Part shown: positions 16,559 to 16,868 of the stretch, piece by piece | Layout of the letters: each line of letters begins with the position of its first letter | How positions within the stretch are numbered: position 1 is the stretch's first letter | Virus record (IMG/VR): IMGVR_UViG_2675903562_000009 | Strand: one strand, 5' to 3' | Length of the DNA: 22,290 nt | From: a virus | Lineage: Duplodnaviria; Heunggongvirae; Uroviricota; Caudoviricetes | Notes under the pieces: generated by a model | Seen by the model: the letters and a program-made list of their open reading frames with translations, nothing else | Database searches by the model: none | Told to the model about the DNA's origin: nothing | Program-made: the position numbers and the translations under genes

Positions 16559-16634
16559 GGCCCTTTAGCTCAGTGGTGAGAGCGAGCGACTCATAATCGC
16601 CAGGTCGCTGGTTCAAATCCAGCAAGGGCCACCA
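16559..16634 (+). tRNA. tRNA with CAU anticodon; closely resembles E. coli tRNA-Ile2 (ileX-type, lysidine-dependent), Met not excluded
   Basis: 76 nt with perfect 7-bp acceptor stem (GGCCCTT/AAGGGCC), D-arm GCTCAGTGGTGAGAGC, anticodon loop CTCATAA, T-loop TTCAAAT and encoded CCA. Confidence 0.85.
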
Positions 16635-16635
16635 A

Positions 16636-16712
16636 CCGTCACCAGTTCATCAGGAAAGAGCGTCAACCCTTTAAGTTGAGTGTGCGAGGTTCGAGTCCTC
16701 GGTGGCGGGCCA
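16636..16712 (+). tRNA. Non-canonical tRNA-like gene (anticodon loop CCTTTAA, nominal UUU) or tRNA pseudogene
   Basis: Acceptor stem CCGTCAC/GTGGCGG (one G-U), T-arm CGAGG-TTCGAGT-CCTCG and encoded CCA, but C at positions 8 and 33 and an atypical D-arm. Begins 1 nt after the preceding tRNA. Confidence 0.45.
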
Positions 16713-16714
16713 GT

Positions 16715-16790
16715 GCCGACTTAGCTCAGTAGGTAGAGCGACTGACTTTTAATCAGTAGGTCACCAGTTCGATTCCGGTAGTCGGCACCA
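16715..16790 (+). tRNA. tRNA-Lys (UUU) by anticodon loop
   Basis: 76 nt: acceptor GCCGACT/AGTCGGC, D-arm GCTCAGTAGGTAGAGC, anticodon stem ACTGA/TCAGT with loop CTTTTAA, T-loop TTCGATT, encoded CCA. Confidence 0.75.
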
Positions 16791-16793
16791 TAT

Positions 16794-16868
16794 GCGGGTA
16801 TCGTATAATGGCTATTACCTCAGCCTTCCAAGCTGATGATGCGGGTTCGATTCCCGCTACCCGCTCCA
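16794..16868 (+). tRNA. tRNA-Gly (UCC), near-identical to E. coli glyT
   Basis: Matches the remembered glyT sequence (GCGGG.ATCGTATAATGGCTATTACCTCAGCCTTCCAAGCTGATGATGCGGGTTCGATTCCCGC..CCCGCTCCA) apart from a compensated acceptor-stem base pair. Confidence 0.9.

Follow-up and report, generated by a model that had tools for sequence, protein, structure and literature searches.

The stretch of DNA analysed here (the window) is a 22,290-nucleotide (nt) Caudoviricetes sequence, IMG/VR record IMGVR_UViG_2675903562_000009, and the subject of this study is an array of four transfer RNA (tRNA) genes within it, above all the second gene, which departs from the canonical tRNA. The array is an ordinary tRNA cluster of a lambda-like Escherichia coli prophage, lying between the Q/late-promoter region and the lysis genes (Table 1). 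A first-pass annotation, made from the sequence alone, had placed four genes at 16559-16868, and the ARAGORN coordinates and anticodons match that proposal exactly. According to the sequence and the ARAGORN calls, the genes are separated by spacers of 1, 2 and 3 nt.

Genes 1, 3 and 4 had been described as standard tRNAs, in agreement with their scores of 65-74 bits against the Rfam tRNA model RF00005 (gathering threshold 29 bits). The CAU gene had been called Ile2-like, which fits its RefSeq label, tRNA-Ile. Gene 2 gave no match to RF00005, either at the gathering threshold or at an E-value of up to 10. Annotation pipelines disagree on this locus: in the RefSeq record NZ_LR883050, whose locus is 100% identical, gene 1 is listed as tRNA-Ile, gene 3 as tRNA-Lys and gene 4 as tRNA-Gly, and gene 2 is left without annotation, whereas the U8 allele of gene 2 is annotated as tRNA-Lys in another RefSeq genome.

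Table 1. The tRNA array and its transcriptional setting in the window.
Feature	Position	Strand	Basis
Gene 1, ileZ-type tRNA, anticodon CAU (tRNA-Ile2 after lysidine modification)	16559..16634	+	ARAGORN; Rfam tRNA, 72.5 bits
Gene 2, non-canonical tRNA-like gene of the argN lineage, anticodon UUU	16636..16712	+	ARAGORN, as tRNA-Lys; without Rfam tRNA match
Gene 3, captured host thrU with A26G and G35U, anticodon UUU	16715..16790	+	ARAGORN; Rfam, 74.2 bits
Gene 4, captured host glyT, anticodon UCC	16794..16868	+	ARAGORN; Rfam, 65.6 bits; alignment with K-12 glyT
Late-gene antiterminator Q	12548..13243	+	Pfam Phage_antiter_Q, 281.8 bits; antitermination protein Q in RefSeq, identical locus
tR'-like intrinsic terminator just past Q	13290..13311	+	8-bp hairpin and T run; function inferred from lambdoid organisation
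Promoter-like TTGCAG-N17-TATTAT, ending 9 nt before gene 1	16521..16549	+	Conservation in 216 related loci
Tandem terminator-like hairpins (17143-17162, 17184-17201, 17293-17308), each with a T run	17143..17316	+	Terminator scan

Divided into its arms, the RNA of gene 2 reads CCGUCAC CA GUUC AUCAGGAAA GAGC G UCAAC CCUUUAA GUUGA GUGUG CGAGG UUCGAGU CCUCG GUGGCGG G CCA, with AUCAGGAAA as a D loop of 9 nt. The first-pass annotation had reported C at positions 8 and 33 together with a sound acceptor stem, T-arm and CCA, and all of this can be read directly: C8 lies at 16643 and C33 at 16669, with the near-universal U8 and U33 both lost, and G18G19, the T loop UUCGAGU and the CCA at 16710-16712 are intact. 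Two pairs are wobble pairs, U4.G69 and U11.G24. The D-arm had also been called odd; this amounts to the single U11.G24 wobble, the D loop of 9 nt being common to canonical relatives with scores of 53 bits. The general form of a cloverleaf is nevertheless present, with stems of 7, 4, 5 and 5 base pairs (bp), G18G19, a T loop of the UUCRANY type and a 3' CCA. The discriminator is G73 (16709), where relatives have U. A73 is an identity element for lysyl-tRNA synthetase. Neither of the arginine anticodons (UCG or UCU) is found in the gene, which carries UUU within a 7-nt loop, CCUUUAA; ARAGORN gives the anticodon position as 35.

In a permissive search of the 451-bp region, the best match of gene 2 within the tRNA clan was to tRNA-Sec, at 16.7 bits against a threshold of 47. 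A reading as tRNA-Sec with an 8-bp acceptor stem, in which the match starts at 16635, was rejected on this score and on the absence of tRNA-Sec architecture. The very weak match could also be taken as a hint that gene 2 is a suppressor or recoding tRNA, a suggestion the first-pass annotation had made in calling it suppressor-like: in the absence of the U33 turn, UUA at positions 35-37 would read UAA, or would promote frameshifting, and CCUUUAA does contain UUA one position out of register. However, the loop is a standard one of 7 nt that puts UUU at positions 34-36, where it pairs with no stop codon, the long variable arm and the 8/5 architecture of tRNA-Sec are missing, and the genes of the window are uninterrupted open reading frames (ORFs) with normal domain content, bar one deletion fusion. 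We consider a suppressor role extremely improbable.

The other three genes have evident sources. By alignment, gene 1 is identical to ileZ of the Shiga toxin (Stx) 2 phage WGPS8. Gene 4, which had been recognised as near-identical to glyT, differs from the E. coli K-12 gene only by C6U and G67A, a compensatory change of the pair C6-G67 to U6-A67. Gene 3 differs from K-12 thrU at two positions, A26G and G35U, the anticodon changing from UGU (Thr) to UUU, and it retains the thrU acceptor pairs G1-C72 and C2-G71 and the discriminator A73. The first-pass description of gene 3 as a standard UUU tRNA holds in that the gene passes Rfam, but it missed that this is host thrU with a mutated anticodon. 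In the phage PhiR47_1, the copies of thrU and glyT are 100% identical to the K-12 genes; in the K-12 host, tyrU sits between thrU and glyT. Judging from these alignments, genes 3 and 4 are captured host copies and not phage inventions. A search of E. coli genomes found no counterpart of gene 2 in the chromosomal thrU-glyT rows, which matched query bases 156-310 only, that is, genes 3-4. Gene 2 shares neither the discriminator A73 nor the body of host tRNA-Lys of the lysT type.

Gene 2 has a different origin. It is homologous over its full length to argN (anticodon UCG, with U8 and U33), as seen in the alignment with phage WGPS8; genes 1-2 together share 86% identity with Stx phages. It starts 1 nt past the CCA of gene 1, downstream of Q, and the layout in AP012540 is alike. 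Stx phages had been credited by the first-pass annotation with an Ile-Arg-Arg set, which is confirmed there as Ile(CAU)-Arg(UCG)-Arg(UCU). Taken by position and homology, gene 2 occupies the argN slot (slot 2) of the lambdoid ileZ-argN-argO array. The idea that it might be a duplicate of a neighbouring gene has to be given up, as it is instead the positional and sequence counterpart of Stx-phage argN. On ileZ, argN and argO themselves, the papers accessible to our literature search yielded only a general statement on the tRNAs of Stx2 phages (PMC7946995).

For an unbiased survey of slot 2, the 3' end of gene 1 was used as an anchor, which yielded 123 IMG/VR prophage contigs and, with the window, 124 sequences. 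Arg-type loops (UCG, and one UCU) were present in 68 of them, CCUUUAA in 20 and CUUUUAU in 1. The copies that fit no canonical anticodon arm number about 35, some 31 of them plainly dead. In about 26 of the 124, the anticodon arm has been swapped for unrelated sequence (GCAGACGACACGATAACAGGGTTGTTG); this form, exemplified by contigs L007, L014 and L015, still has the acceptor stem, D arm, T stem and CCA of argN, shows a damaged T loop (GCGGGU) in most copies and is not called by ARAGORN. Other dead forms have lost the anticodon arm by deletion (n=3) or are argN::argO deletion chimeras that join the 5' half of argN to the 3' half of argO (n=3).

A second scan, in which the class-specific anticodon stem was fixed and the loop left free, returned 125 loci. 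Their loops were CCUUUAA in 120, UCUUUAA in 2, and ACUUUAA, CUUUUAU (L009) and UUUCUAA (L201) in 1 each. L201 (8421-8497, minus strand) carries a canonical Arg-UCU gene with the same body as gene 2, followed by thrU and glyT copies, and L009 (4006-4082, minus strand) a UUU gene with the gene 2 body, the loop CUUUUAU and perfect stems. Both have U at positions 8 and 33. The Rfam tRNA scores of the slot-2 alleles form a graded series: 53.6 bits for argN, 53.5 for the Arg-UCU gene of L201, 53.2 for the U33-UUU gene of L009, 44.4 for the common C33 allele, 43.8 for a U32 allele (L133) and 40.4 for a U2 allele (L001). No Rfam tRNA match was obtained for the C8/U11 allele, for the allele with a D-stem deletion or for that of the window, which is distinguished from the common C33 allele by C8, U11, U4, U63 and G73. 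The common C33 allele in turn has an A51.C63 mismatch in the T stem, present in 11 of 49 distinct slot-2 sequences. Wherever gene 3 carries UUU, its neighbour gene 2 is of the G73/U63 type (6 of the 125 loci, the window included); the C8/U11 background of gene 2 is also found with a normal UGU gene 3. We also observed, in prophages of the PPompW type (L003, 3116-3191), a slot-2 allele with a 1-nt D-stem deletion and a G3.U70 pair, present in 13 of the 125 loci; such a pair is the classical identity element of alanine tRNA.

Over the 49 distinct slot-2 sequences, 96% of the cells are paired in the cloverleaf, against 29-53% in slid controls, and five pairs show changes on both sides, three of which (7-66, 27-43 and 30-40) split argN from the class-B body carried by gene 2. 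This covariation points to a body of gene 2 that diverged under selection as a real tRNA. From the allele comparison, we conclude that the C33/UUU loop arose later than the divergence of the body, and that the window allele is the most eroded form that still looks intact.

Diversity within the arrays gives the same slot a special position. In 93 four-gene loci, nucleotide diversity (pi) is 0.002 for gene 1, 0.023 for gene 2, 0.011 for gene 3 and 0.013 for gene 4; in 67 Stx-type arrays, it is 0.008 for ileZ, 0.071 for argN and 0.044 for argO, and the value of 0.19 for the intervening 13-nt spacer is, given its shortness, no more than a hint. The flanks were tried as a neutral yardstick and found unusable, being mosaic (pi of about 0.28). 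In both kinds of array, constraint is weakest on slot 2, though not absent. At least 80% of the four-gene array is present in 599 of 5,426 complete E. coli genomes (about 11%), while the exact haplotype of the window, with the UUU allele of gene 3, is found in 3 of them. E. coli L1_E925 (NZ_LR883050), E1316 and E1739 carry this haplotype, and strain 19-5 (NZ_CP047010) has the common allele. Among species-representative genomes, the class-B anticodon-stem pattern is limited to E. coli and Shigella flexneri, a range that makes a test of deep conservation impossible.

On balance, we think it rather probable that gene 2 is a decaying tRNA with poor or no decoding activity that would still be processed within the array. 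Of the options listed in the first-pass annotation, decay is the best supported: the Rfam score is below threshold, RefSeq omits the gene, and the window allele stands at the low end of the graded allele scores. A covariance score below threshold is, on the sequence side, also what the same annotation had named as refuting its own proposal. The course of events may have been as follows. The body of gene 2 would have diverged from argN while still a working tRNA, and Arg(UCU) and U33-UUU forms of this kind survive in relatives. The anticodon loop would then have been remodelled to CCUUUAA, with C33 and UUU, and the window allele would have suffered further losses, namely the change of U8 to C, of C11 to U and of U4-A69 to U4.G69, and a discriminator G.

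Persistence of the stems and CCA can be accommodated by this decay. Transcription of the array would start both at a promoter of its own and at the late promoter, from which Q-modified polymerase would read through everything. In polycistronic tRNA transcripts, RNase P cleavage at the next gene sets the upstream 3' end. Gene 2 presumably still forms a helix of acceptor stem and T arm, ending in CCA, at which RNase P could cleave; given spacers of 1-3 nt, a cut at gene 2 would free the 3' end of tRNA-Ile2 and the 5' end of gene 3. We propose that such a role in array processing could have preserved the stems and CCA of gene 2 during the erosion of its decoding features.

Several observations weigh against decay. 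All 21 pairs of the window-allele cloverleaf are standard ones (21/21). The energy of this cloverleaf is -22.7 kcal/mol, compared with -26.0 kcal/mol for the minimum-free-energy fold, a gap of 3.3 that resembles the gap of 3.9 for canonical argN; as the cloverleaf is not the minimum-energy fold for gene 2, nor for canonical argN and thrU-type genes, thermodynamic folding does not discriminate function here. The CCUUUAA loop is kept in 120 of the 125 related loci, and the common C33 allele is present in phages deposited as complete genomes. The changes between L201 and the C33 class affect 3 of 7 loop positions and 4 of 70 positions elsewhere (Fisher p = 0.014), and this clustering in the anticodon loop looks more like directed change than random decay. 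Stem polymorphisms in slot 2 consist mainly of C-to-U changes that leave a G.U pair in place, six being pair-keeping and three pair-breaking. The tRNA haplotype of the window also occurs in contig L171, where the holins, endolysin and terminase are intact. Finally, in some systems tRNAs with a substituted U33 are impaired but retain part of their function.

The retained features of gene 2 might instead mean that the gene, although non-decoding, is kept as a tRNA-shaped RNA, acting as a decoy for a nuclease or modification enzyme or as processing 'punctuation'. The acceptor stem, T arm and CCA are kept in the window allele and also in most slot-2 copies whose anticodon arm was replaced or deleted, and the spacers of 1-3 nt tie each tRNA 3' end to cleavage at the next gene. 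On the other hand, the dead slot-2 classes are recent and some have acceptor-stem mismatches and have lost the CCA, so that retention may merely reflect lack of time, and Stx-type arrays, with spacers of 7 and 13 nt, have no need of coupling this tight. Maintenance of gene 2 for its shape appears to us very doubtful.

Codon usage was considered as another source of selection on the array. In the ORFs of the window, ATA accounts for 17% of the codons for Ile, rising to 32% in the cargo genes beyond Q, GGA for 19% of those for Gly, ACA for 29% of those for Thr, AGA+AGG for 22% of those for Arg and AAA for 69% of those for Lys. Usage in E. coli is roughly 7-10% for ATA, 11-13% for GGA, 13-17% for ACA, about 6% for AGA+AGG and about 75% for AAA. 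ATA, GGA, ACA and AGA/AGG thus appear enriched relative to E. coli usage, and AAA does not. Ile2, Gly-UCC, Thr-UGU and Arg-UCU fit a function in supplying rare codons. The different codon-usage compensation suggested in the first-pass annotation is accordingly borne out for ATA and GGA (and in relatives for ACA and AGA) but not for AAA. Since AAA is not enriched, codon supply fails to explain the two UUU anticodons, and the G35U change of gene 3 removed an ACA reader from the array. Most simply, G35U in the thrU copy is a recent mutation that is neutral or mildly harmful.

The UUU anticodon, left without an explanation by codon supply, leads to another interpretation, in which the common C33 form of gene 2 is a working lysine tRNA on an arginine-tRNA body, retained by the prophage for its evasion of host nucleases that attack tRNA-Lys(UUU), among them AriB of PARIS, P2 Old and PrrC. 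Several recent reports give it a background. T5 evades PARIS by means of a variant tRNA-Lys (PMC11464382), and infection is rescued from PrrC by a phage tRNA-Lys (PMC11555353). P2 Old kills lambda-infected cells mainly via cleavage of tRNA-ThrU and depends on paired CNG motifs in the anticodon stem (PMC12445682), and in the case of HepS, for which the trigger is tail-tip protein J of the lambda type, the tRNAs cleaved are those for Thr, Ile and Ser (PMC13043305). Phage tRNA-Lys variants that neutralise PARIS and PrrC are thus already known (PMC11464382; PMC11555353; PMC12445682). Such a tRNA would keep up the decoding of AAA/AAG during lytic growth, and the change of thrU to UUU would have replaced a gene 2 hit by C8/U11.

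The sequence of gene 2 is in part consistent with this proposal. It has G39, U40, U41 and C16, in place of the U39, C40|A41 and U16 required by AriB (PMC12409363), and its anticodon stem, UCAAC/GUUGA, has no paired CNG motifs of the kind that P2 Old needs (PMC12445682); if it worked as a lysine tRNA, gene 2 would probably escape both AriB and Old. However, any non-Lys body would trivially show such 'resistance' features. The clustering of slot-2 changes in the anticodon loop described above (p = 0.014), the retention of CCUUUAA, the presence of the array in about 11% of complete E. coli genomes and the confinement of the gene 3 UUU allele to the window-type (C8/U11) background of gene 2 are all in favour as well. 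Yet the C33 class is of recent origin and confined to E. coli and Shigella, so that little can be read into the conservation of its loop; the common allele carries the A51.C63 mismatch in its T stem; and in the window allele U8, U33 and A73 are all missing and the covariance model gives no match. We regard a working lysine tRNA as unlikely for the common C33 form, and lower still is our estimate for the window allele itself as a nuclease-resistant lysine tRNA.

A broader version of the same idea involves gene 3. The C33/UUU gene would be a functional lysine decoder, or a decoy, immune to Toprim and anticodon nucleases (AriB, Old and PrrC), and would form with the thrU copy a counter-defence cassette of a temperate phage against cleavage of Lys-UUU and Thr-UGU, in which the switch of gene 3 replaces a crippled gene 2. 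Gene 3, however, keeps the AriB site UAAUC|A, U16 and the CUG/CAG motif of thrU, and with these nuclease determinants it would be cleaved like the host tRNAs; its UUU allele is, moreover, very rare, as shown by the 3 genomes mentioned above. A cassette of this kind seems to us distinctly unlikely, and decay of gene 2 remains the interpretation that we prefer.

As regards the setting of the array, the promoter-like element upstream of gene 1 agrees with the promoter consensus at 8 of 12 positions, which is under the cut-off of a simple scan. Over the 216 loci, conservation of at least 90% begins at the -35-like TTGCA(G/A) and peaks at both hexamers, the sequence upstream being mosaic. This pattern suggests that the element is a probable promoter of the array itself, travelling with it. 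In a terminator scan of 13000-17600, 14 sites were found compared with 4.3 expected from shuffled sequences, the three between the array and the holin gene being among the four best. In the lysogen, these tandem hairpins may keep transcription of the tRNA genes from reaching the lysis genes.

Downstream, the ORF at 17283-18746 joins a holin domain (amino acids 18-119) to the second Ig, tail-tip and C-terminal receptor-binding domains of J, and homology to related prophages breaks at 17636. The holin::J fusion points to a deletion that extends from the lysis genes through the greater part of the tail genes and leaves this prophage copy defective. The identical locus in NZ_LR883050 adjoins an ompW remnant. 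Defectiveness of the prophage was considered as the cause of tRNA decay and was rejected, as the lysis and terminase genes are intact in L171 with its same haplotype.

The genes with Pfam matches upstream of the array, besides Q, are DUF968, RusA, a Ser/Thr kinase, a PP2C phosphatase and an N6/N4 DNA methylase (15460-16509). The cargo between Q and the tRNA genes (13313-16509) comprises a eukaryote-type Ser/Thr protein kinase, the PP2C phosphatase, a small ORF and the N6/N4 DNA methylase; AGA+AGG amount to 39% of its Arg codons, and its use of ATA and AGA/AGG is the highest in the window. Rfam further detected a sok antitoxin RNA (9522-9697, plus strand, 121.6 bits), indicating a hok/sok-type toxin-antitoxin locus in the early region, and the small RNA DicF (2616-2667, minus strand, 70.8 bits). 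In L009, four tandem copies of STnc100 (2265-3380, minus strand, 77-132 bits in Rfam) lie downstream of the tRNA genes, and in L002 a single copy follows stx2.

Taken as a whole, the locus is a case of routine turnover of prophage tRNA genes and is in part already annotated in public records. It is instructive in that slot 2 of a widespread lambdoid array is a hotspot of change, occupied by Arg-UCG, Arg-UCU, UUU genes with or without U33 and several dead forms, and in that two supposed 'phage' tRNAs were copied directly from host thrU and glyT. Lys-UUU and Thr-UGU are also the tRNAs for which recent work demonstrated cleavage by PARIS, P2 Old and HepS, of which Old and HepS act specifically against lambda-like phages. 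Should the common C33/UUU allele prove to be a working lysine tRNA, tRNA-based counter-defence would extend from large virulent phages to common temperate ones.

The best known relative of the array is ileZ-argN-argO of Stx and other lambdoid phages. Both arrays follow Q and precede the lysis or stx genes, and they have in common gene 1, which is ileZ, a gene 2 homologous to argN over its full length with compensatory stem changes, and the upstream promoter-like sequence. They differ in slot 2, which has UCG and U33 in ileZ-argN-argO and UUU and C33 in the window, in the replacement of argO by captured host thrU and glyT, and in the length of the spacers (7 and 13 nt versus 1-3 nt). Closer still is the Met(CAU)-Lys(UUU)-Thr(UGU)-Gly(UCC) array of phages such as PhiR47_1 (PV340566), which has the same architecture, spacing and CCUUUAA loop and is 94-97% identical. 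There, however, slot 2 passes the tRNA model and gene 3 has UGU, whereas in the window slot 2 fails and gene 3 has UUU.

Anticodon shift, or remoulding, is the process by which a tRNA gene changes its identity via a point mutation in the anticodon. Gene 3, as thrU with a single anticodon change, is a parallel to it, and slot 2 carries UCG, UCU and UUU in otherwise homologous bodies. The nuclease-resistant phage tRNA-Lys of the T5/PARIS and PrrC170 systems resembles gene 2 in sharing the anticodon of the host target, and by inspection of its sequence gene 2 has, as such a tRNA would, substitutions at AriB positions 39-41 and 16 and no CNG motif for Old. The resistant tRNAs were shown to be functional by experiment, whereas gene 2 is a candidate read from its sequence. 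Unlike them, gene 2 lacks U33 (and, in the window, U8), has a discriminator other than A, descends from an arginine tRNA and belongs to a temperate phage.

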